A stretch of DNA of 64,000 bases from Takakia lepidozioides (lineage: Eukaryota > Plantae > Bryophyta), in NCBI GenBank assembly GCA_030704615.1, contig CM060732.1:5208001-5272000 (forward strand), given 5' to 3'. Positions 2,513-51,900 of this stretch are shown piece after piece. Every line of letters begins with the position of its first letter. The first letter of the stretch is position 1. A program made the translations under genes and the position numbers. The notes beneath the pieces were generated by a model. It ran no database searches, was not told the origin of the DNA, and saw nothing but the letters and a program-made list of their open reading frames with translations.

Positions 2513-2843
2513 TCACCAGTAATCACCACAAGAACAAATCCCATCTTCAAAGTGGTGAGAGCGGTTAGAGTCCCGTACAACAATTGCTCGGCCAACAATC
2601 TTTGAGTTGAATTTGGTGGAGGTGTGGCAGTCACCACACACTAGAAGATTCTTGATGAGACGGAGAGGCGTCCTAGGGGTCATGCTGATCAGCCCAAAAC
2701 CAATGGCCAGCTTCTCACTGTGGTGGCAAAGAGAAAATTTCTTTTCTCCTCCCCACATCATGCAATACAAAGCGTCTGTTAGGCACATACCCCACCTCCT
2801 TCATCTTCCCAGACAATCTTCTTAGCTCAGCATGGATTTCCTT
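2513..2843 (-). pseudogene. 3' part (E+/DYW deaminase domain) of a PLS-PPR editing-factor pseudogene, split by the retroelement
   Basis: [13 protein letters not shown]...[16 protein letters not shown]...[14 protein letters not shown]; upstream KEIHAEL joins HPKIK at about 14049 on the far side of the insertion; frameshifted. Confidence 0.9.
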
Positions 2844-3201
2844 TGTCAAGTTAAATAAGCACAGTGTGAAAAGAACTAGAATAAAGCTAGTTATTTGTAT
2901 TTAACACTTGGATTTAGGTCAAGTGTTAAATCAGGTGTCAAGTTTAGTTTGACACCTGAACGGCCTTATCTTCACGAGAGCGGCAGTCGCGTAGCTCATC
3001 TCTCTCGAGTTGAGCCTGCGCGACCGAGCTCCTTCATGCGTTTAGATCTGAGTGTGCTTATGATGGGAGTGTAGGTTGTTGTGGGGTGGAGTCCCCATAG
3101 CGTGGGGTGCCCCTGGCTCGACTTCTATTTTAAAGAGTGATAGCGATGGATTTCATATTTCTTGTGTTGAGAGTGTGTGTCCTTTTTAGCTCTATTTATC
3201 A
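2844..3201 (+). repeat. 5' LTR segment B (358 bp), lacking the first ~87 bp of the full LTR
   Basis: tgtcaagttaaataag...ctctatttatca; no mismatch seen by eye against 13605-13962. Confidence 0.95.
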
Positions 3202-3214
3202 CTCGAGAGAGATG
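3201..3214 (+). promoter_or_regulatory. Putative self-priming primer-binding site
   Basis: actcgagagagatg is the exact reverse complement of catctctctcgagt at 2997-3010 inside the LTR; no TGG-starting tRNA PBS follows the LTR. Confidence 0.7.
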
Positions 3215-3699
3215 CTCTCTTACTTGTGAGTGCAAGGTAGGAGTTGAGGGTTAGCACTTGCAAGATTACTTGTGTGTAAGTAGTGCTTAGTTTGAGAAGC
3301 ATATCATTGAATGTGACCACAAGATTCAGCGTGCCCTGAAACGCCTGGAGGATGACGATGCCAGAGCCGTCACTGTTGTTGCAGTCGCTGAAGCTACCAA
3401 GTCACCAGAGGCTTTGGAGTACACAAGGCAAATCAAGGAGAAGATGAAAGTTGCGGAGTACATGGATCTGGATGGGAAAGCAGACAACAAAATTCGGATA
3501 ATGGAGGACGTGGAAGTAAAAAACTGGCAGCAGCCGATGAACACCAAGACAAACACGGCAGCTCACATTCCAGGCACAAGAAGAATATAGGCGGAAGCAA
3601 GATGCACTGCGAAGGCGACAGGCACAAGTGGGTGGAAACGCTTTATCTTTGAGTGATCTCGAGTTCGTAGCATTCTTGACTGAGGAGGGTACGATTGCA

Positions 3700-4040
3700 G
3701 ACTGCAGCAAACCTGACTCGAAGGCAAGTGTGTATGCCATTTTTTTATGAGGAAAAGATTCTATATTACGTTGGTGTCTCAAGACAGGCTTATCAGAGTA
3801 TGAGGCTACACTTTGCACGCAAGCCGCTACAATGCTGGTATGTGAAGGTGCAGAATGAGAACCGTCCAGCCGAGCTCTACTTGAAAGCATTCGAAACAAA
3901 TGGATCTCTGACAATGGTGCAGTTCCCAGCGGAAATGACAATGGGAAGTTGCAAAATATTTGGGAGAACCCACTGGATTGCAAACCTCTCATGAGAGAAG
4001 AAGAGAAGCTGAAGGTTGAAGAGGCAAAGGACGTTGTTAA
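3700..4040 (+). pseudogene. Frameshifted fragment of a GIY-YIG-like (GrxS16 N-terminal / cyanobacterial type) gene inside the retroelement
   Basis: Joining frames gives SVYAIF-YEEKILYYVGVSRQAYQSMRLHFARKPLQCWYVKVQNENRP-SRALLESIRNKWISDNGAVPSGNDNGKLQNIWENPLDCKPLM. Confidence 0.6.
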
Positions 4041-5389
4041 GAACAGGAAGAAGCGGGAGCGGCGATGTCTCGGTAGAGCAACCTGACGGTAGAGATGTGA
4101 AAGAGAATGTGGAGAAGTCGACAGGTTGGGCACTGTCAGCTCAGGAAGAGACCATTCAGAGAGAGCTTGAGCGTGAAAGAAACAGGGCACAACCAAAGGA
4201 GCTGATGGCCTTCTAAGTCTTTGATTTGGCAGCTTGCAGCTGCCTCATTGCAACATTGTTTATCCCTGAACAACCAGCCATATCTCTTCCCACCTCTTAT
4301 ATAGACATCAGAACTGTACAATGGATGAGGGATGGACTCAAGAAGGGGTGCTCCACACATGGGAGGGAGCTGCTGGTCCTCTGCAGATATGCATCACCAG
4401 CCTAGCAGCAGTGGGAGCAACAAGCAAGAGATTGACAAAGTAAGACATGCAAGCTAAGAATTGAAGGTGGGAGTTAGGAGCATGCTGCGTGCAGCATTTG
4501 CAGACTCAGGCAGCAGCTGAGAAGGAAGAGGCTCAAACCAATGTTGAGGGAGGCCCATCGAAGCAGTTTCAGGCACCTCAAGTACCAAGTCCTTCGTCAC
4601 CAAGGGATTTTCCTTCTCTTTCTGTGCTTGAAGAAGTGAATGGGTCGGGTCAGCCCTTTCTAGCAGGGCAAGCATGCTTGGTGGGGAGTCTAGACGCGTC
4701 CAGGGAACTCGTCCAAGGTTGGTACTAGTTTGTGCATGAACGTTTGAATTTCTTTGCCAAAAGATAGCCTCCCCGGCCTTACTGTGAGCCGCTTTCAGCT
4801 GTCCGTCATACCATTGTCCTTTTGCACTCAACGTTCTCATTAAGTGAGGAGACGTCGTCTTCCTGGGCCGCCCATAGTTTTGGAGCTATCATGGTGCCTG
4901 CACGAGAACGATCTGTGTTGCTCAAGTTGAGCTGACAGGATTGCGGGAGACTGGCGGGCTGCGTTCGCCACAGAGACGACGGCTGCCAGGCGAATATGAA
5001 CAATACCTAAGAGCCGCTGGTACCAATTTAGAACTTTGGGCACATATACAGGAACAGGGAACCAGGGAACAGGGAACCAAGACAATAGAGTTTTCTTTGT
5101 ATTTGTTTTGTCTTATTAAAAAGAAAAAAAGAAAAAGAAAAAAAAGTGTTATGTTTAAAGAGTCTGGTTGGTCATATCTTTGTCAAATGGGCTCCGTTTG
5201 ACTCAATTTTTGAGGGGATGGCTGCAGAAAGGGGAAATCTACCTATCTAGACCTGGTTTTTGTTTCTGGCACTCTGCTAAAAATCTATGGAATTTTTAGA
5301 GTGTGAGTGTGCCGTGAAAGATCCACAATTCTGTTTCTAGAACCAATTCTGGTCTATTTGAGAGACAAATCTGTGGATGTCCTCCTTGT

Positions 5390-6022
5390 ATGGCTGGGGG
5401 AAATGAGGACGTAATTGAAGGGCAGGTCTCTTCTCTTAGCCTGTGCACACAAGGGGACAGGATTTATGTTTCCCAAGGAACTCAGACTGATTTGAGTAGA
5501 GAACAGTTGGACGAGTTGATTGCATACTGGGAGTCAGGCATTAGCAGTAGACAACAGACTGCTGTAGTTGGCGTTGAGGGCCTCAATATCGCTTTGGACA
5601 GTCAGAACTCTGTTGGAGCCAGCAGTTCTGCAGCTGTAAGTGAAATACCAAAGTGGGTGAAAGCTAGGCTTGGAACACAGCCAAAGACAGCCCCGGGGAC
5701 CAAGGTGTTCAGCCACAAGGCAGTGGTGTACTGGAGTAGAGGAGCAGGAGCTACACAAGTTTGTGCAATCAGACATGGTTGCAGCCGGATACGCTCTGCA
5801 CAGGGCAACCACGAGCGGGGGTTCATTAGCAATGACATGTTTGTTGTGCGTGAAGGAGATGCAGTCATTCGCAATGAGGACACCCGCAACCGTCTCAAAG
5901 CTTTCGAGTTGAGAGACTATCAGACCCTACCTTTGTTTTCTTTAGTGTTCAGTGAGCAGGAGATAGGGGAGTATTGCTTTGTCTCTACCTGGCAGAAAGA
6001 GGAGGAGGGTTGGTTAGAGTGA
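5390..6022 (+). CDS. Hypothetical 210-aa ORF inside the retroelement, function unknown
   Basis: ATG-initiated open frame; no domain recognised. Confidence 0.3.
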   Translation: MAGGNEDVIEGQVSSLSLCTQGDRIYVSQGTQTDLSREQLDELIAYWESGISSRQQTAVVGVEGLNIALDSQNSVGASSSAAVSEIPKWVKARLGTQPKTAPGTKVFSHKAVVYWSRGAGATQVCAIRHGCSRIRSAQGNHERGFISNDMFVVREGDAVIRNEDTRNRLKAFELRDYQTLPLFSLVFSEQEIGEYCFVSTWQKEEEGWLE

Positions 6023-6924
6023 GCTACTGTAGCTTGGGACAAGGTTAGTGGCAGGTTTCTGGACATAGATATACCTCCTACACCTTACCATCATGCAGAG
6101 CGAGGCACTTTGAGAGAAGTCTGGCAGTTGATAGCATAGATCAGGATTAGATCTTGCTTGGTCGGGCTTCTATTCTTCCCCTCCATCTCTGTACTATTTT
6201 CATTACCTTGTACTTGTAGTTGCCAAAGCCTCTCTTGGTGGAGGCCAGTCAGTCCGGGGTTTTGGGCTGGGATATTTTGCAGGATCAGCATTGCAGCTGG
6301 ATTTTGGTGTGGGGGTGTTGATGTTTGATTTCTTGTGTTTGGATCCCCCCCAACACCTGCATGCTTGACTGTGCGCCATGTTGGTTTTGTGTGGGCGATT
6401 GCTTTCATAGGGATTAGGCCGGATTTGATCACCGGTCAATCCTAGAGTATGTTGTCGGTGGTGAGGCTGGAGTGATGACCAGCAAGACCACCGCTGTTGA
6501 GGTGGATTCGCTTCTCCCCAGCATGATATGCAGATATGGGGCCCTTCATTGTGAGTGAATGTCACTCGAGTATGCCAAACTAGACCCCAAAACTGGTGAG
6601 TTTGATATGGTGGAGGGAAACCAGGAAAATGAATTTGGATGTTTCTCCCTGGCAGTACCAAGAACGGGTGTCAAGTGTAGAGAATCCAGCTACTCCCCAA
6701 TCCCTCTTGAAAGAAAATTTTCATTGCAAAACTGTCAGCTTCTGAAACATCAGGATTTTGCCAACTACCGTTGAAACAACAGGTGACAACTCCTCTATAC
6801 TGCTCCAGTGATCACCACCCTGGGCACCTCACATATTGTACAGTCTGACTGTTCAACTCAATCTTTCTCAAATCGCTTAGAACATTACATTCCCCTGGAC
6901 ACTCATTCATGCGTGTTGCTTCTT

Positions 6925-7062
6925 TCACCAGTATTCGCCACAAGAACACACCCCATCTTGGAAGTGGTGAAAGCGGTTGGCATCCCGTACAACAATTTCT
7001 CGCCCAACAAGTTTTGAGATGAACTTGGTGGCGGTGTGATAGTCACCGCACACACGAAGGTC
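6925..7062 (-). pseudogene. C-terminal DYW-domain fragment abutting the gag remnant in antisense
   Basis: [44 protein letters not shown]. Confidence 0.9.
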
Positions 7063-7078
7063 CCAACAGCAACTAGGG

Positions 7079-8013
7079 GTGATATGTTGGACATGTAGAG
7101 GACCCATGTCAAGAGAGATTGCCCAGAGAGTGGCAAAAGGCCGGTACAAACACAGCCTGCACAGTTGCAGTGTGGGCATTGTGGCAAGTATGGGCATGGA
7201 GATGCCCAGTGTTATGACTTGCATCCTGAGTTGCGCCCAGGCCAGTTCCAAGGGAACAATGGTGGCCGGGGGCGAGGTGGACCAGCCCAGAGAGGACGAG
7301 GTGGTCGGGCACGAGGTGCAGGCCAAGGGCAAGCTCAACATGGCCAAGGACGCGGAGGTCAGGGTGTTGACCAAGGCATGGCCAACCGGCTTCAGCAGCT
7401 AGAGCAGAGGCTCGCTGCCATGGCTACAGCTCAGGCGGTACGGGCTCCCAGGTGGGATGGTCCACCTCCTATTCCTGAGGGAGGAGATATGGGAGGCATG
7501 GGATTCATGTGCGGAGCAGCACTACCACTAGAGCAGGTGGAGTCTTCTGCACCCGTGACTCGAGGAGCAGCACGAGTTCCTGAGCCACGAGGTGCAGAGG
7601 TGGAGTTGGATCCACAACGTGGGGAGGCAAGCCGTCAGGCGAGGTTGCCTCAGTCATTCACCTTGGCGGAGACAGTGTCAACGCCATCCATGGCACCTAG
7701 TTCTCGTCCGACTGTTACCGAGGCGGAGGTTACTATGCCATTGGGGAGAGCTACACGTGCAGCACTGACAGCTGCTACCAAAGCTAGTGCAGCCGGTGTG
7801 TTATTGGGGGCAACCACCTATGTGTGTCAAGCCCCACTGTTCTCGACAACCATGATTGCGACGCCGGGGGTAAGACCAGCTGCAGTGTTCAGACTAGCAG
7901 CAACACTCTGTGAGAGTGGGGAGGTCACTTCATCCTCTACGGAGTTAGTGGAAGGTGTAGTGGCAGAGGGATCCTCGGATTTGAGGGTCAAGATTGCCAC
8001 GGCTGCGCCCTGA
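7079..8013 (+). pseudogene. gag: gag C-terminal remnant: zinc knuckles and RGG-rich region
   Basis: CWTCRG/HVKRDC (frameshifted), then [14 protein letters not shown], then GGRGRGG repeats. Confidence 0.75.
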
Positions 8014-8031
8014 CAAGCTGCAGCTGCCAGG

Positions 8032-8500
8032 TTGACGGAGCTGCCAGCTAGGCCAGCCTTTGAGCGCGCCATGGTGACACCTGGAGTTGTCTTGTTAGAC
8101 AACCAGGATGGCATTTTCTCTTTGAGTGGACCGACAGGCAAGAAGTACCGGCCACTGCGGGTCTTGTTGGACTCGGGAGCTCAGCCATTGATGTTGGGCA
8201 GAGCTGCTATTGCAGGTTTGGGCCTCATTGAGGCGGATATGGAGCCTTGTCCTTTCCAGATACAGACATCTCTGGGAGGATCAGAGCAGGCTCGGGGCAT
8301 TACACGGCATCAGTTGGCCATTCGACTGCAGCCGGATCATCCTATCAATGGCTCAGTAATGCGAGCCAAGGCCATTGTGACGGACGCGATCTCTTACGAT
8401 GTCCTCGTTGGTGGGGCAGTGTTAGACCCCATGGGCTTCACCCTGGACTTTTGGGAGGAGTCAGCATTCTACAGGCCTGGATGGCAGTCAGGGGATGGTC
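8032..8500 (+). pseudogene. pol: Retroviral-type aspartic protease
   Basis: RVLLDSGAQP catalytic motif at about 8170; downstream YDVLVGGAVL. Confidence 0.85.
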
Positions 8501-8880
8501 ATCGTGCACAGCGCCCTGTGACATTCATTGGGGGTATTGCGGCTGCTCAACGGGGCAAGATGCCAACACTAGCCGCCTTTACAGCTGCAGTTAGTTGGCC
8601 TGGAGAGTTGCTGGAAGACAATGCCCATGCAGAGGATGTGTCATCTCCAGCAGAGCAGGATGACATGCATGGTATGGCAAAGTTGCCTGCCATGGTTGCT
8701 CACACTCCATTGTGGGGTACGAGCAAGGATTTACAGCAGGTTGCTGATGGACGAGTGCAACAGGCCTGGGTAGAGGCTTTTGTACCATCAAGAGAGGTGG
8801 AGAGTGCGGGTATTGCACCAAGACCACCTCAGTTGTCACCATTGGATACCACACCTATTGTGTGGCAGTATCCGGATGAA

Positions 8881-9830
8881 GGCATTTGCTTTTTGGACTT
8901 GTTTGGCGGGATCAGCACCGGATTGGCTGCTGTGCTACAGGTAGGTGTGCGGGTAAGGCGTTACCTGTATGTGGAGAGGGATGAGACTGCTCGACACGTC
9001 TCACTGCGCCATGTTGCTCAGTTGGTACAGCAGTACCCTGCTTTGTTGCCAGTGTCTGCAGTTCGTGGATACCAACAAGCCTTGCAAGCAGACATTTCGT
9101 TGCTGGGGGCGCCGGATTTGGAGCAGGTTGGCTCCATTGATCTGGTAGTGGCAGGTTGGCCCTGCCAAGGGCATTCATCAGCCGGGCATGGCAATGGATT
9201 TTGAGACTCGAGGACGGGTCTGTTTTGGGAGATGGTGCGGGTTTTGCGCCACTTGCAGCTTCATCAAGCTGTATCTCCAGCATACATCTTGGAGAATGTG
9301 CCACTGATGGGTGATTCTTGGGCCAGGGTGATGGCCAGTGTGCATCAAGTCCGGTCGTGGCTTGGGTCAGCAGTGTTGCTGGATGCAGCTGCAGTGGGGT
9401 CACGGGCTCATTGTCCACGGCTTTGGTGGACTAACTTGATGCCACCCGCACTGCTCAAGCGTGCATTTGCAGCGGCCAGCACACCTCACTGTGGATGGCA
9501 TTTTGGACACAGGGAGGCAGTCTCAACGTGTGAGACACGATGACCGTTCGCCTCTGGCAGTGGTCAACAGGGTGGGTCAACCACGAGCAGCATTACCTAC
9601 ACTGCTCAGCTTCCCAGGATCTCATGCTTTTCGGGATGGTGGACCTGGCCTCCTGTGGGATGCTCAGTTGCAGCAGTTAGTGGAGCCTAATGCCAACGAG
9701 CGAGAGCGGGCTATGGGGTTTTCCACTGGGACCACGGTGGTGCCTTCTCTTTCTGAGGCATCACGGCGTCAGGTGTTGGGGCAAGCAATGGATCTCAATT
9801 GCTTGACCTGGATTATCAGCTTGGCTATGG
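8881..9830 (+). pseudogene. DNMT3-like cytosine-5 DNA methyltransferase domain within pol
   Basis: Motif I FLDLFGGISTG, II RYLYVE, IV DLVVAGWPCQ (catalytic PC at 9160-9165), VI YILENV, VIII AHCPRLWWTNL, IX ERERAMGF, X RRQVLGQAM, in canonical order; one TGA at 9202 and a frameshift near 9470. Confidence 0.92.
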
Positions 9831-10282
9831 CTGAGCAACGTAGAGTGCGGAGTGCACTCCCCTTCATGGTCTCTCTGCCTACCGAGACGGTACAGGCAGC
9901 AAGTGGGGGCGAGCTGGTGAGGACCACTGGGTGTAGACATCCATGGCACACGTGGGAGGTGCTCGAGGTTCAGAGGGAGTTGGCAGCCAAGGCAGCTGTG
10001 ATGGATGAGGTTGGGGATTCTTCTCGGGATGAGGAGGTTCTCAATGATGAGATGATGGGGCAGGATGAGGCCTTGTCATTGACTGAGCAGGAAGGGAGTA
10101 CTGCTCAAGAGGTTGTAGCATAGCAACCACGGGACGCGTCCTCTACCTCTAAGCCCACTGGACTTAAGGTTGCAGTTACGGAGGACAATTGGGAGCCTGA
10201 CATTGAACCCATTGTCACCGGAGGAGAGAGACGACGTATACGGCGGTTCCTGAGGGCTTATAGGAATTGTTTTGCCTTCAGT

Positions 10283-11163
10283 TTGAAGGACTTGGGAGCA
10301 CTGAAGGGTCAAGAGATCCGTATTGAGTTGGCCACTGACACGCCAATCTTTCGGAGACCCTATAGATACAGTGACATGGAGAGGTCTTTGATTCAGATGA
10401 GGACTCAAGATCCCTGGGAGGCAGGTTTGGTGGAGCTCTCTGGTGGAGAGTATGCTTCAGCCACAGTGATGCCAGCCAAGAAGGATGTCTATGGCAATTG
10501 GACGGAGAGACGTATGTGCGGTGATTACCGGCCTGTAAATCGTCAGACCATGTCCGATAGGTATGCCATGCCGACACCAGAGGAGATCTTTGATGCCATT
10601 GGGCATTCCAAGGTCTTTAGCACGTTGGATTTATGATCCGGATATCACCAGTTGCCGATCAAGGAGGCGGATAAGCAAAAGACGGCATTTTGGGGGATCA
10701 ATGAGCACGGGAAGGATTGCCTATACCAGTGGCGGTTCTTACCATTTGGGCTTAAAACGCTCCCGCTGAGTTTCAAAGAGTCATGGACACGATTCTGGCA
10801 GGGGTGGAGTTTGCTCGGTGCTACATAGATGACATCATCATCTTTAGTGCTACGGTGGAGGAGCATGAGAGACACCTTCAGGGGGTATTTGAGCGCTTGA
10901 GGACCCACGGATTAAAGTTACATCCCGGCAAGTGCAAGTTTTTCCACAACCAGATTGAGTATCTGGGTCATATGATATATCCTGCAGGATTGGGGGTACA
11001 ACAGACTAAGGTAGAGTCCATTGCACAGGTTCCACGCCCCACGGATGTGAGCCGAGTTCGAGCTTTCATGGGGTTAACAAACTATTACAGACGGTTTGTT
11101 AAGGGATTTAGTGCCATTGCAAAGGCTCTAACCAAGCTGACCAAGGTGGACCAGGAGTGGTAG
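10283..11163 (+). pseudogene. pol: Reverse transcriptase (gypsy type)
   Basis: RMCGDYRPVN, FSTLDL*SGYHQ, LPFGL, CYIDDIIIFS, KC..IEYLGH, FMGLTNYYRRFV. Confidence 0.95.
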
Positions 11164-11208
11164 TGGGAAGATGAGCAAGAACAAGCTTTTCAAGAGCTCA
11201 AGGCGAGG

Positions 11209-13257
11209 TTGACCTCGGCGCCCATCTTGAGACGACCTATCAGGGGGCGTCCTTTTCAGCTGCATACAGATTGGAGCATGCTGGGGCTTGGAGCGGTGCT
11301 CACACAGGTGGATGATGAGGGAAGAGAGTTCGTAGTGGTTTATGCTAGCCGCTCGAACAATGCTGCAGAGTCTAAGTATAGCTCATATGAGGGAGAATGC
11401 TTAGTTGCAGTGTGGGCCGTGGCACACTTCAGGTGCTATCTATATGGCAATCTCTTCACCCTTGTCACGGATCACCAACCACTCAAGTGGTTGATGGAGT
11501 CAGACAAGCTTACGGGGAAGCTTGCACGGTGGGCACTCATCCTTCAAGAGTATGACTTCCAGGTGGTGCATCGACCGGGTTTGGTCAATCGCAATGCAGA
11601 TGGGTTGAGTTGCAATCCATGCACGAGCCAGCAGGATGACACTGGAGCTCGGTGGCATGGTGAGACGGACGAGGAGATGGTGCCCGGATGGCATGCATCT
11701 GCATTTCTGTGTATCTTGGCAGCGGAAGGCCAGGTTGGACCTGCAACAGGGATGACTGTAGATCAAGTGTCTGAGGACCCTGAGGCCAGCAATGAGCAAG
11801 GTGGTGCCAACGATATACATGAGGATTCAGTTGTGTTGGACTACCTCCGCACTGGAGACACTGCAGCCACTGTGACTGCAAAGGAGAGGGATCGGATCCT
11901 ACAACGAGCCAAGAGGTTCAAGTGGGAGGGGACACACCTGCTCCGAGTGTGGGAGGATGGTCGAGTGAGAATTGTGCCTCACCCAACACAGCGGGCACGG
12001 TTAGTGCGGCATGCCCATGAGGAGTTGGGGCATTTTGGGGTGCGACGCACTCATAGTCTACTGCAGGGGCAGTATTGGTGGCGTGGTATGCACACAGAGG
12101 TGCAACAATTTGTGGCTAGGTGCATGGTGTGTGACAAGGTGCGTGCTTCATTCAACGCCCCTACTCCACAATTGCACCCTCTTCCGATCATGGGATTGGG
12201 CTACAGGTGGAGTCTTGATTTCGCAGGGCCGTTGCCACTGACCATGCGCCACAACAAGTACGTGTTGGTGATGGTTGAGCACTTCTCCAAGTGGATTGAA
12301 TTGGTTCCATTGCCTGATAAGGCTAGTGAGGGAGCTGCGTATGCATTCTTGGATTGTGTGCTTAGCCGATTCGGTGCTCCAGCTGAGGTACTCACAGACC
12401 AAGGGAGAGAGTTCTTGGGGGAGTTTCAGGCTTTGTGTGACAAGGCCTTGATAGACCACCGCACCACTTCTCGGGATCATCCTGAGGCCGATGGCTTGGC
12501 AGAGAGAGTTGTTCAGACATTAAAGAGGGGTTTGCGCAAGTATGGCTTGCAGAAGGGACACCTAGGAGATTGGGACCTTCAGTTACCCTGGTTAGCCATG
12601 GGCTACAGGTTCAGCAAGCAAGCATCACTTGCCTCCTTCTCATCATACTTTCTTCTCTTTGGCCGAGAGCCGGATTTGCTTACATCCATTCGCAGAGAAG
12701 CTGCTACAATTCTTAACCTTGACGATCCGGACGTGTGGGCACGTGTATGTGAGCAGCGTGCAGAGTTATTCAAGAGAGTCATGCCCATGGCTTTCGAGAA
12801 CCTTGCCATTGCACAACACCGTGATACGTTGAGGTATGCTACCATACGTGGTGGGGGCTATCGTCCTGGGGTTCGGAGATTCAACCCTGGTGACTATGTC
12901 TATCTGCAGCAAACTGCTCCTACGACCTTGGATGTGACTGCAGGACGTGTTATTCTGAGGGTTCGAGAGGTCTTGCCCTCAGGCGTCTTGGTCTTGGAGG
13001 GTCGGGATGGCATAACTTGGAAGGACCATGTGCGTAATTGTGCGCCATGTCACCTTCCGAATGTCGATGGCAGGATAGACCCAAACTTGACAGTGGTATC
13101 TGAAGGTTTGAGGTGCATGTTGTGTGGGTCTGCTAGAGGGGCAGCCACCATGCTGGTGTGTGATTGATGCTCTAGAGGTTGGCATATAGGATGCTTGACT
13201 CCACCTCCTGAGATGGTTCCGGATGGGGATTGGTTATGTCCACATTGCATTGGATAG
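11209..13257 (+). pseudogene. pol: RNase H, integrase and C-terminal PHD finger
   Basis: LHTDWS..GAVL, YEGECL, TDHQPL, ADGLS (RNase H); HEELGH..CMVC, LDFAGPL, TDQGREF, GLAERVVQ (integrase); CMLC..MLVCD*CSRGWHIGCLTPP...GDWLCPHC (C4HC3). Confidence 0.95.
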
Positions 13258-13506
13258 TGGGAGTGGATACAACCATGGAAGGCTAACAAGAAACGCAAGG
13301 CCCAGCTACTAGGAGACCTTGAACACACGAGGTCCTGGCTCAAGTTCACAGATTGCAAGACGGCGATTAACGATGGGGCTACTCTTGTACCCGGCCTCTT
13401 GGTCTATAGAGTTTGAGTGCAATAGGGGCAGTGATAGAGGACTTAGTACGGCTGTGGCTATTACATCTTGTAGCTATCTGGAGGTAGAGGGACCTACCCA
13501 CCAGCT

Positions 13507-13516
13507 AGGGGGGCGA
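13507..13516 (+). promoter_or_regulatory. Polypurine tract
   Basis: aggggggcga just before the TG that starts the full 3' LTR at 13518. Confidence 0.7.
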
Positions 13517-13517
13517 T

Positions 13518-13962
13518 TGTGGCAGACTACTTTATTGTGTATATATATGTGGTGTGGTTTGGACAGCGATGTAGTTGTGTAGCGATATGTATGCGCACGA
13601 CAGCTGTCAAGTTAAATAAGCACAGTGTGAAAAGAACTAGAATAAAGCTAGTTATTTGTATTTAACACTTGGATTTAGGTCAAGTGTTAAATCAGGTGTC
13701 AAGTTTAGTTTGACACCTGAACGGCCTTATCTTCACGAGAGCGGCAGTCGCGTAGCTCATCTCTCTCGAGTTGAGCCTGCGCGACCGAGCTCCTTCATGC
13801 GTTTAGATCTGAGTGTGCTTATGATGGGAGTGTAGGTTGTTGTGGGGTGGAGTCCCCATAGCGTGGGGTGCCCCTGGCTCGACTTCTATTTTAAAGAGTG
13901 ATAGCGATGGATTTCATATTTCTTGTGTTGAGAGTGTGTGTCCTTTTTAGCTCTATTTATCA
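13518..13962 (+). repeat. Complete 3' LTR (A+B, 445 bp, TG...CA)
   Basis: Starts tgtggcag after the PPT and ends tttatca, the same end that precedes the PBS in the 5' copy. Confidence 0.88.
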
Positions 13963-14048
13963 TTGTGGCAGACTACTTTATTGTGCATATATATGTGGTG
14001 TGGTTTGGACAACGATGTAGTTGTGTAGCGATATGTATGCGCACGACA
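13963..14048 (+). repeat. Extra copy of LTR segment A at the right end of the element
   Basis: 86-bp match to 13517-13602 with two transitions; ends gcacgaca. Confidence 0.95.
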
Positions 14049-14215
14049 TCTTAATTTTGGGATGCAACTTGTCATCTACAACGAAGGTTTGCACCTTGTT
14101 GCAAATCTCAATGCAGCAGCGACCTGGCTCCTTTTCAACCCCTCTGACCTTCATCATTCTTCTCACCTTTACAGTATCAACCCACCTGCCAGCTACAACA
14201 TACACTACAACACAC
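14049..14215 (-). pseudogene. E2/PG-box part of the PPR-DYW pseudogene split by the retroelement
   Basis: VYVVAGRWVDTVKVRRMMKVRGVEKEPGRCCIEICNKVQTFVVDDKLHPKIK. Confidence 0.88.
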
Positions 14216-14780: not shown

Positions 14781-15142
14781 ATAATGCACTTGGCTCGAGT
14801 TTAGGGTTGCTAGGTCACAGTGTGCAGCCTCGCTGGGACTGAGTGTATTTTTTGGGGTCGGTGTGGTTCGAGAGCTCCGCAGGCTTAGGGACTTCGTGTT
14901 TGTTTGTCTTTGTGCCACCATCTGTGTTTTCTTAAGGTTCGCAAACCAGGATAAGCGGTTTCTAAAAGACTAGTATCTTGTTGTGTGCACATGAGAGAGC
15001 GGGTGGGCGGGGGGAGGAGAGAATAAAGAGAGAGAAGTGTCGCGCAACGAGTATACTGTTTGTGGGATCGACCTGTATGTTTGCTCTTGTTGTATCGGCC
15101 ATGTCACGACGTGTGCTATATGGGAGCTTTAGAGCGGAGACA

Positions 15143-48900: not shown

Positions 48901-51900
48901 TATCATTGCTTGTAGGGCTCAGAAGAATTTACTGGGACAAGTTTATAAGTGAAATAAACTCAAACCACCATGGTGGGTTAATGACAAGAGATCTGGTTGG
49001 CCCTTCACCGCTTGTACAAGCCGAAAGCTGTCACAAGTACAAGCGTGAAGACTACTAAGGGTGCAGTGGTAACTTCATCGGTTGACATTGTCAAAACCTT
49101 TGAAACCCACTACAGTATCCTTGGCAGAACTTCTAGGACTAACAGTGAGGGTCCTCTGTGAATGGAAGGACACAGTTGGTAAAACTGTCCTATGATTCAA
49201 ACAGCCCTGATGAATGGAGATATTTCAAAAGCCTACACGCTCCCATTAGTTCTTCTGAGATTGTGGAAGCAATTGAACATCTAAATGGATTATAAAGCAG
49301 GTGGTCCTGATGGCATAGTCAACGAGCTTATCAAGCACGGTGGCGATCCCATGATAGAGGCCCTAGTTCTCCTCTTTAACCTTATCTGGAAGACTGGAAG
49401 ACTGGAAGACTGATCCGCTGGCGACAGGGGGTCATTGTCAATCTATATAAGAAGGGTGACAGAGAAGACCGGGGGAACTATCGGGGCATCACGCCTCCTC
49501 AATGCTGTTGGCAAAGATATTTTGCAGAGTTATAAGTACTCGTCTCGAGGTGATCTGGAATCTAGAGGTTGTTTCACGAAGGCCAAGCTGGCTTTCGGCG
49601 AAACAGGGGCTGTGTGGACCATATCTTCACTCTAAGCCAGATTATCCAGGGAAGGAAAAAGAAGGGAAACCCACTTATGTTTTTTTCTTGGATGTCAAAA
49701 AGGCTTATGACACAGTGTGGAGAGATGGCCTATGGTTCCGCCTCTGGTCTTGTGGGATCAAGGGAACGATGTGGAGAGTTGTCCACAACTTGTATGCTCA
49801 CACCAAAAGCTGTGTCACTGTTAACGGAAGAAGTCCAAACTTCTTTGACTTAGACCAAGGTGTAGCTCAAGGATGTACTCTCTCCCCGCGACTCTTCAAT
49901 GTTTTCATCAATCAAACTCCTCGGAGGATGTGAAAGTGACAGCTTACGTGAAATAACTTAAACCACCATGTGGGTAATGACAAGAGATTCTGGTTGGGCC
50001 TTTCAACGTTTGTACAAGCTGAAAACTGTCAGCAGTACAGCACTGACGATTACTAAGGGTGCAGTGGTGACTTCAACGGTTGACATTGTCGAAACCTTTG
50101 AAACCCACTACAGCATCCTTGGCAGAATTTCTAGGTCTAACAGTGAGGGGTCCTCTGAAGAATTGAAGGGCACGTTGGGAAAAACTGTTCCTATGATTCA
50201 GACAGCCCTGATGATTGGAGTATATCTCAAAGCTTACAATGCTCCATTAGTTTTTTGAGATTGTGGAAGCATTCAGCATTTAAACGGATATAAAGCTGGT
50301 GGACCTGATGGACAGTTACGAGCTTATCAAGCACGGTGGCGATCCAATGATAGAGGCCCTTCTACTTCTCTTTAACCTTATCTGAAGGACTGAAATGATC
50401 CCCTTTCACTGGCGACAGGGGGACATTGTCATTCTATACAAGAAGAGAAGAACCGGGGAACACCAAGGCATCACGCTCCTCAATGTAGTTGGCAAGATAT
50501 TTTGCAGAGTTATAAGTACTCGTCTCGAGGTTGATCTGGAATCTAGAGGTTGTTTCCAGAAGGCCAAGCTGGCTTTTGGCGAAACAGGGACTGTGTGGAT
50601 AATCTTCACTCTAAGCCAGATTATCCAGGGAAGGAAAAAGAAGAAGGAAAACCACTTTGTATTTTCTTGGATGTCGAAAAGGCTATGACCACCGTGTGGA
50701 GATACGGTCTATGGCTCCGACTTTGGTCATGTGGGATCAAGGGAAAGACGTGGAGAGTTGTCCATAACTTGTATCCTCACACCAAAAGTTGTGTCTTTGT
50801 TAATGGACAGAAGTCTAACTTCTTTGACATAGACCAGGTGTAGCTCAAGGATGTCCCCTATCCCCTTATGCTCTTCAGTGTCTTCATCAATCAACCCTCG
50901 AGGATGTGGAAAGTGGAGGGATTTGGGTTAAGGGTGGTGATGCCACCATACCAGCCCTTATTTTTGCGGATGACTTCGCAGGCATAGGGGAGACTCCTTC
51001 CAATCTCCAGGATTGATTGCGCACAAGAGATATTTTTGACCTTTGGGGGCTAACGTCAGTGAAGTGCAGTGGTGCATCAACAACGAGTGAGGGAGGAGTT
51101 ATCTCAAGTGCAGTGGAAGTGGGGAAGCCAAGAGATGCCGGTCCTCCCTTCCTACACATTCCTCGGCGTCGAGTTTTCCTCCAACTGTAATTGGGATGCA
51201 CATATTCAGAAAGTTGTAGTTTGAAGCGCAAAGGGCTGGGTCTCACCAAATTTTTTCACTGCAGAGGGATCAACTCTGTGGTAAAAACAACCATGCTTTG
51301 TGGCGTTGTTAGACCTGCCTTGGAGTACGCATCTGCAATATGGGTTGATAACTCCAACCAGGCTAAGTCTCTAGAATCCATCAAGTGGGGGGTGCTTAAG
51401 GAGTGCATGTCAGCATGCTCCAAAACAGCCAATGTGGCTGTTCGGGTGAGTTTGGCATCCCTTTAAGCTCCGACGAGATGATTCATGGTCAGATGGTTGG
51501 GGTCAGCTGCAACATATGTCCAACATCAGATATCCTAAGTTAATTGTCTCTATATCTTGGAAGCAGGATCGCCCGGTCAAACAGGCTGAGTCCCTGCGAA
51601 AAGAGAGTAGAAGAGATTCTCAAGGATCTGTCCGTTAGGGCAAAAACCCCCTGAACTTGTTTCCAGTCTGTGACATGGGGGAGCACATCATGGATGACCT
51701 CAAGAGTCAGAGAGGCAAGGGAGAGTGCAATTGCCCTTGTGTGGGCAACCTGAAGACAATATTCATTTTCTGATTCATTGTCTGGGGTTCTCTCACCAGA
51801 GAGACGCTCTCTCCAAATCAAGGGAATTGGCCTGTACCTCGTTACAACTTTGAAAGTCTCGAGGCTGAGCCAAAAGCCCAGGCCCTTTTGGGGCCTAGTT

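Follow-up and report, generated by a model that had tools for sequence, protein, structure and literature searches.

A PHD finger at the integrase C-terminus of a DNMT3-carrying Ty3/Gypsy retrotransposon family, described from a decayed copy in Takakia lepidozioides

KnitGypsy-Dnmt3 from Klebsormidium nitens (de Mendoza et al. 2018, PMC5890265) has a DNMT3-type domain among its Gypsy domains and is bordered by split repeats of the DIRS kind, all of which are shared by the element described here; its DNMT is described in the Pol ORF, whereas in the window's subfamily the DNMT lies before a conserved in-frame stop, and its host is an alga while that of the present element, Takakia lepidozioides, is a land plant. 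A PHD finger is not named in the text and three supplements of that paper, although Fig. 4c or the large supplement may show one; the role proposed there for such DNMTs is methylation of the element's cDNA (PMC5890265). A 2019 opinion paper states that land plants such as tracheophytes have no DNMT-carrying retrotransposons (PMC6338049). The present family extends these retrotransposons into land plants.

REM1 is a Chlamydomonas element whose PHD finger is reportedly encoded in a separate antisense ORF. Like the present element, REM1 and Gypsy-7a_cRei of Chlamydomonas are Ty3/Gypsy elements with a PHD finger proposed as an insertion guide, however the parts of the source covered mention no methyltransferase for either, and a legend places the PHD of Gypsy-7a_cRei before INT (PMC9940879). 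PHD-bearing Gypsy elements have been called widespread (PMC6673714; bioRxiv 10.1101/2021.11.30.470311), and the idea that a PHD finger guides integration has been raised for retrotransposons of algae (PMC6673714, PMC9940879); a direct demonstration was not found in the covered parts of these two papers. In chromoviruses (MAGGY chromodomain) the integrase likewise ends in a histone reader that follows the beta-barrel domain (PMC6673714; bioRxiv 10.1101/2021.11.30.470311); this reader is a chromodomain associated with H3K9me, whereas the present family has a PHD finger with the unmodified H3 N-terminus as predicted ligand. EpiLTRs (bioRxiv 10.64898/2026.05.21.726589) are LTR elements that likewise hold a cytosine DNMT and a histone reader in one unit; they differ in having a chromodomain, a DAM and a DNMT4-sister enzyme, Gypsy-DNMT3 is considered a separate acquisition by their authors, and in the covered part of the preprint the term 'PHD' occurs only in the acknowledgements. 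Already known, then, are the repeats and enzyme of KnitGypsy-Dnmt3, algal Gypsy elements with a PHD finger, and elements that combine a chromodomain with a DNMT, and as the parts are known separately the surprise is moderate. In the literature searched the pairing of PHD and DNMT3 in one Gypsy element is unnamed, with the reservation made above for the figure and supplement of PMC5890265, and there is no account of a spread from chlorophytes to liverworts or of a stop junction between DNMT and reverse transcriptase (RT).

The window, a 64,000-nucleotide stretch of T. lepidozioides DNA, contains at 2844–14048 a decayed Ty3/Gypsy copy of the KnitGypsy-Dnmt3 kind; it has the protease (PR)-RT-RNase H (RH)-integrase (IN) order, the DDE integrase, the polypurine tract and the short target duplication of Ty3/Gypsy. 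From 5' to 3' it consists of repeat A1, a foreign stretch, the 3' part of gag, PR, DNMT, RT, RH, IN-PHD, polypurine tract and repeats B1, A2 and B2, with all repeats and coding parts on the plus strand. A1 (2844–3201) forms the left end of the element, starts with TGTC and is identical to A2 at 358/358 bases. The polypurine tract (13506–13515), common to the relatives displayed, stands directly before the repeat block at 13516–14048, which comprises B1 (13516–13602), a palindromic junction GACA-GC-TGTC, A2 (13605–13962) and B2 (13962–14048), the last being the right end of the element and ending with GACA; B1-GC-A2 can be read as a permuted LTR with a palindromic junction. The 358-bp repeats were also considered as ordinary LTRs; this is ruled out, as the element ends and the target duplication sit at A1 and B2. 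The 4-bp target duplication (2840–2843 and 14049–14052, one mismatch) can also be read in three metagenome loci (L003, L018 and L067), which share with the window the DIRS-like split repeats A…B-A-B; a second B end is present in 15 of the 39 loci with enough 3' sequence (window counted). The empty site is recovered in contigs of three of four sequencing runs, which join 2840 to 14050. The interrupted host sequence is a PPR-DYW pseudogene on the minus strand, the 3' part of which lies at 2516–2843 and which resumes at 14049 and beyond (PF14432, E 4.9e-33).

A candidate self-priming site follows A1 at 3202–3215; its 14 nt are complementary to 2996–3009 within A1 with one mismatch. Such pairing of the bases after A1 with the middle of A1 is seen in three of five loci (window, L018 and L066) whereas L003 and L067 show no such pairing with at most one mismatch; it is compatible with a putative tRNA-free priming. 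The Phygy elements of REXdb are described as having a tRNA-Trp primer site and an NCGN target duplication (PMC6317226, covered in part); the four target duplications read here include no NCGN, and the candidate primer site behind A1 is complementary to A1.

The stretch at 3216–7060 has no match to the gag of the family; it includes low-depth sequence (3603–5200), high-depth sequence (5207–6400) with an unassigned 234-codon frame at 5318–6022, and a DYW C-terminal fragment on the minus strand (6920–7060). The 3' part of gag lies at 7061–8013 with a CCHC knuckle at 7171–7212; the 5' part of the family's gag was not found upstream of 7061. The aspartic protease (8062–8505, DSG near 8170) has a weak Pfam match and is followed by the DNMT (8878–9800). 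An in-frame TAG followed by CAA-CCA lies at 10121–10129 between DNMT and RT; RT itself (10260–11163) is broken by stops and one frameshift near 10756–10804. RNase H (11164–11553; PF17917, E 5.9e-34) and integrase (11983–13040) follow, the integrase being open here and composed of an HHCC zinc domain, a D-D-x34-E core, a long helix and a beta-barrel C-terminal domain. With PHD, RT and DNMT each broken the window copy is dead; A1 and A2 are identical in sequence despite the decayed coding region, so the defective copy may have moved in trans. In one run the summed read depth of gag-pol is about a thousand times that of 3603–4805, a ratio which is not a copy number but suggests a high-copy family. 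The CpG observed/expected ratio is 0.49 in the coding part of the element vs 0.42 in the rest of the window, so there is no extra CpG depletion in the element; CpG depletion was set aside as uninformative as a mark of self-methylation.

The PHD finger occupies 13114–13257 with the end of the Pol frame included. The zinc ligands at 13114–13248 read C-x2-C-x11-C-x2-C-x4-H-x2-C-x14-C-x2-C, a C4HC3 arrangement; the sequence-only reading had placed such a finger at the integrase C-terminus, correctly, and had given its first spacer as x9, which measures x11. The frame that opens at 11164 runs from RNase H through integrase into the finger and ends at 13255–13257, two codons after the finger; one internal stop lies at 13165–13167. 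With that stop read as X, PF00628 matches the window finger over the full model (1–47) with E 5.3e-11 and 42.8 bits against a cut-off of 24, far above chance, and the finger is a true PHD finger. An AlphaFold model of a natural relative that is 83% identical (P0122) has a mean pLDDT of 79.8, with 86–92 in the PHD blocks, and shows the order core, long helix, beta-barrel C-terminal domain and PHD; its integrase part matches foamy-virus and Ty3 integrases, and its last domain superposes on the PHD fingers of DPF2, ATXR5 and Arabidopsis ORC1b with Z of 9.0–9.6 and rmsd of 0.9–1.5 Å over 50–54 residues. A chromodomain (PF00385) was not found in a family protein (P0001), in the second ORF of L070 or in the window. 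In another protein (P0084) a chromodomain sits after a second, Tf2-type integrase end.

The methyltransferase of the element is real and of DNMT3 type. In the window its motifs I, IV, VI and VIII lie at 8893, 9154, 9286 and 9406, and PF00145 matches with E 1.9e-12 (stops read as X) despite one stop at 9202–9204 and a frameshift near 9460–9490; the best solved matches of the DNMT domain of an open relative are DNMT3A/B/C. The catalytic Cys is present in 119 of 123 DNMTs and motifs I, VI and VIII are conserved; 82 of the 123 have E-C as catalytic dipeptide and 27 have P-C. Between two open loci, L070 and L075, the DNMT has a dN/dS of 0.15/1.2. Unannotated DNMT3-like domains between RNase H and integrase were observed in volvocine proteins (P0023, which is Chlamydomonas reinhardtii CHLRE_09g398141v5, P0013, P0007 and P0043).

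Two layouts are found in the family. In the chlorophyte type, RT-RH-DNMT-IN-PHD form one chain with a long tail. Among 123 single-ORF proteins, 115 carry the DNMT between RNase H and integrase, on the same chain as the PHD finger; members with DNMT fused to RT also exist (P0003 and P0005). The window's subfamily is instead laid out as gag-PR-DNMT, an in-frame stop and RT-RH-IN-PHD, an order in which DNMT and RT would share a chain only by readthrough. This stop, an in-frame TAG or TAA then CA, is conserved in 38 of 43 loci (window counted); it divides L070 exactly into two ORFs of 1369 codons (gag-PR-DNMT) and 1047 codons (RT-RH-IN-PHD), and 13 separate gag-PR-DNMT proteins of 1330–1451 aa end at it. 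The exact CAR-YYA context, which drives readthrough in tobacco mosaic virus (PMC2754532, covered in part), is present in only three of the 38 junctions (window 10121–10129, L070 5083–5091, L075 4661–4669); the remaining 35 have CAA-CCC or CAA-CCT and are mostly copies of one family, and as an ATG comes next after most of these stops, re-initiation is also possible. The position of the junction is unusual for readthrough, being after the methylase and not after gag. Readthrough and re-initiation alike would place the methylase with gag and the PHD finger with the rarer integrase product.

The chlorophyte-type tail after the PHD finger is 280–420 aa long (P0008, P0012, P0037, P0065, P0073 and others) and resembles Tudor-like and amino-methyltransferase-like domains; D-P-x-x-G-x-G is found in 27 of 92 tails and a canonical motif IV in only four of 92. 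The chlorophyte-type Pol would then combine DNMT3, PHD, a Tudor-like domain and a possible second methylase.

Retention of the two domains was followed in relatives found with the integrase end plus PHD as query, a search biased toward PHD carriers; PF00628 is present in 118 of the 120 long relatives listed (of 134 matches) and in 114 of the 120 shorter relatives listed (of 356 matches), and the zinc ligands of the finger are retained in 118–119 of the 120 long ones. With a DNMT profile built here the domain is detected in 113 of these 120 long relatives, of which precomputed Pfam lists only 26. The converse search with the DNMT domain as query gave 99 proteins, 75 with an integrase core, of which 65 (query counted) have a PHD finger, so that the co-occurrence of reader and methyltransferase, which the sequence-only reading had put forward as a check, does hold across relatives. 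In an index-free search of 150 representatives 48 have both PHD and DNMT, 17 PHD only, 11 DNMT only and 74 neither, many of the single-domain cases being fragments or second ORFs; three RT clades of other Gypsy proteins (9, 5 and 53 members) have neither domain. Labels of PHD absence that were based on a regular expression over-count absence, because the expression missed variant fingers that Pfam calls (e.g. P0187, P0191 and P0123); only proteins also without PF00628 were taken as PHD-less. By this definition P0257, P0259 and P0265 have DNMT and integrase without PHD, and P0046, P0053 and P0055 have PHD with no detectable DNMT; each set forms a clade nested among carriers of both, with IQ-TREE supports that are approximate.

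The 80 metagenome loci are not independent, being mostly copies of one host's family. The finger is nonetheless a regular part of the integrase frame among them, as it is in frame with the integrase end at 57 of the 61 loci where both adjoin, so that the refuting outcome named by the sequence-only reading, a finger out of frame with integrase, is not what is found. Of 52 copies covered in full, 35 keep all eight ligands and have no stop; where the sequence is long enough (37 loci), the DNMT precedes RT in 35. A scan of viral_contigs for the element gave 0 loci. The finger is under purifying selection; dN/dS is 0.07/1.35 between the open loci L070 and L075 (45 codons), and between the window and L018, L067 and L070 dN is 0.22–0.31 and dS 0.86–1.36. 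The DNMT, RT and integrase trees of 123 proteins are congruent; of 40 strong DNMT splits 37 recur in the integrase tree and none contradicts a strong split. Among named relatives the nearest are those of Calypogeia (81%), Marchantia, Coleochaete and Klebsormidium, and the family ranges over chlorophytes, Klebsormidium, Coleochaete and liverworts; two K. nitens proteins with integrase and PF00628, both fragments, fall in the same integrase clade and may not be copies of the published KnitGypsy-Dnmt3. The pairing of PHD and DNMT is real and conserved. Members with and without PHD, DNMT and the acidic K4 patch provide natural contrasts within the family, copies of which are present in Chlamydomonas and Marchantia.

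The best solved sequence matches of the finger are CHD4, KDM5B/5A PHD1, PHF12, PHF21A, ATXR5 and BAZ2A, and ING, BPTF and TAF3 are not among the matches listed; the finger is assigned to the KDM5-PHD1/BAZ2 type, an unmodified-H3 reader class, with binding being predicted from its residues. A Trp two residues before the zinc His, which we take to be the H3K4me3 cage position of the ING/BPTF type, is found in 0 of 244 family fingers, and reading of H3K4me3 or H3K9me is ruled out on residues. Unmodified H3 is also the ligand class of the ADD domain; the suggestion of the sequence-only reading that the finger reads the H3 tail is upheld in this predicted form. In KDM5A, D312 binds H3R2 and P331, G333 and W335 form the H3A1 pocket (bioRxiv 10.1101/715474, covered in part); the window has equivalents of all four residues (Ala1 pocket P-x-G-x-W and Arg2-binding Asp), and the Asp after Cys3 is present in 227 of 244 family relatives. 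As the Ala1 pocket and Arg2 Asp are kept and the cage Trp is absent, the finger is predicted to bind the free N-terminus of H3 rather than H3K4me3 or H3K9me.

The KDM5A/B PHD1 and BAZ2A/B PHD fingers, which are top sequence matches and share the Ala1 pocket, the Arg2 Asp and the lack of a cage Trp, differ from the fingers of the window's subclade in the acidic K4 patch, which is missing in the latter. The K4-reading acidic pair is E305/D306 in KDM5A, and affinity of BAZ2A falls 17-fold when it is neutralised (PMC5415848, covered in part); in the present family 142 of 188 long-tailed relatives, mostly of chlorophyte type, have an acidic pair before the first beta-strand, while among short-tailed relatives the count is only 15 of 56. 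The window lacks the pair, as do 16 of the 17 pattern-matched closest relatives (21 examined), and basic residues are often found in the same loop of close relatives without it. This distribution makes it plausible that the family senses the K4 state but doubtful that this subclade does, where such reading may be weak or lost.

The preferred reading, to which slightly more belief than doubt is given, is that the PHD finger is a chromatin tether that would hold the integration complex on nucleosomes through the unmodified N-terminus of H3, and that the DNMT3-like domain would work separately and probably earlier, on the element's own cDNA. If the stop between DNMT and RT is leaky, the DNMT would be produced about as abundantly as gag and would be packaged, with integrase-PHD as the rarer readthrough product; the likely readthrough junction in this way points to an abundant, packaged methylase, and cleavage by the protease would leave the PHD finger on integrase and not on the DNMT. 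The finger would be expected to bias insertion away from H3K4me3 promoters. A 2.6-fold intergenic bias is known for the PHD-bearing Gypsy-7a_cRei, selection not being excluded as its source (PMC9940879, covered in part). Against the preferred reading stand the gene-derived (PPR-DYW) target of this copy, the single-chain layout of the 115 proteins above, which would allow coupling, the missing acidic pair, the rarity of the exact CAR-YYA context, the E-C or P-C dipeptide of most DNMTs and the lack of methylation by the Klebsormidium DNMT in yeast, a result that its authors considered inconclusive. Such coupling was the proposal of the sequence-only reading, modelled on the ADD domain of DNMT3; the finger would read H3K4me0 where the element inserts and would bring the DNMT3-like domain there or activate it, in the way ADD acts on DNMT3A. 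The pairing is old and stable, as seen in the recurring tree splits without strong conflict, both domains are confined to this family among the 150 representatives, the DNMT adjoins integrase-PHD in one chain in chlorophyte-type members, and an enzyme of DNMT3 type stands with a finger of the unmodified-H3 class. Co-inheritance is however expected of any two domains on one element; in the window's subfamily the DNMT stands before RT and the two domains lie on opposite sides of the conserved stop and at opposite ends of Pol, each domain has been lost alone in both directions, volvocine P0013 and P0023 keep the PHD finger beside a DNMT without its catalytic motif, and the closest relatives lack the acidic H3K4-reading patch. 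The reader-writer coupling is therefore possible but not favoured, and is considered rather improbable; its analogy with ADD is not supported.

Doubt about the finger as a reader leads to an alternative, itself judged unlikely, in which the PHD of the land-plant subclade would no longer read histone marks and would be a structural or a protein- or DNA-binding module of integrase. This would agree with the loss of the acidic pair and the frequent basic residues in the loop, with a linker motif directly before the finger that is as conserved as the finger itself, and with the other targets that some PHD fingers bind (PMC10124903, covered in part); retention of the Ala1 pocket and the Arg2-binding Asp and superposition of the model on the H3-bound ATXR5 and ORC1b fingers argue against it, and many PHD fingers without an acidic wall bind H3 all the same, in an extended or bent form (PMC5415848). 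Doubt about the writer leads to another, regarded as very improbable, in which the PHD would tether integrase and the DNMT domain would be no DNA writer but inactive, RNA-directed or a decoy against host silencing. The DNMT of the Klebsormidium Gypsy gave no methylation in yeast, however human DNMT3B failed in the same assay, which its authors considered inconclusive (PMC5890265); the non-canonical E-C of the majority of proteins and the lack of extra CpG depletion would also suit a non-writer, whereas the near-universal catalytic Cys, the conserved motifs and the low dN relative to dS between L070 and L075 argue against this reading. The most far-reaching version, a read-write kit of the green lineage, is thought quite unlikely: the PHD would dock on H3K4-unmethylated nucleosomes, a co-packaged DNMT3 would methylate CG sites of the new copy and of its flanking DNA, readthrough in land plants would tune the dosage of writer to reader, and chlorophytes would add the Tudor-like and amino-methyltransferase-like tail. 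If true, an ancient family would have rebuilt the ADD-DNMT3 logic independently, and the element could seed host heterochromatin in non-seed plants.

Several annotated 'PHD-type domain-containing' genes of Marchantia (P0140, P0178, P0307–P0309, P0311 and P0312) are fragments of this retrotransposon family. P0305 of Closterium sp. joins a family-type protease and DNMT piece to a copia-type RT domain (PF07727), possibly as a chimeric gene model or by domain transfer. Elsewhere in the window a dense cluster of decayed PPR and PPR-DYW genes extends over both strands at 15000–37500, and a second, unrelated reverse-transcriptase fragment lies at 49460–49933 (PF00078, E 1.3e-13).
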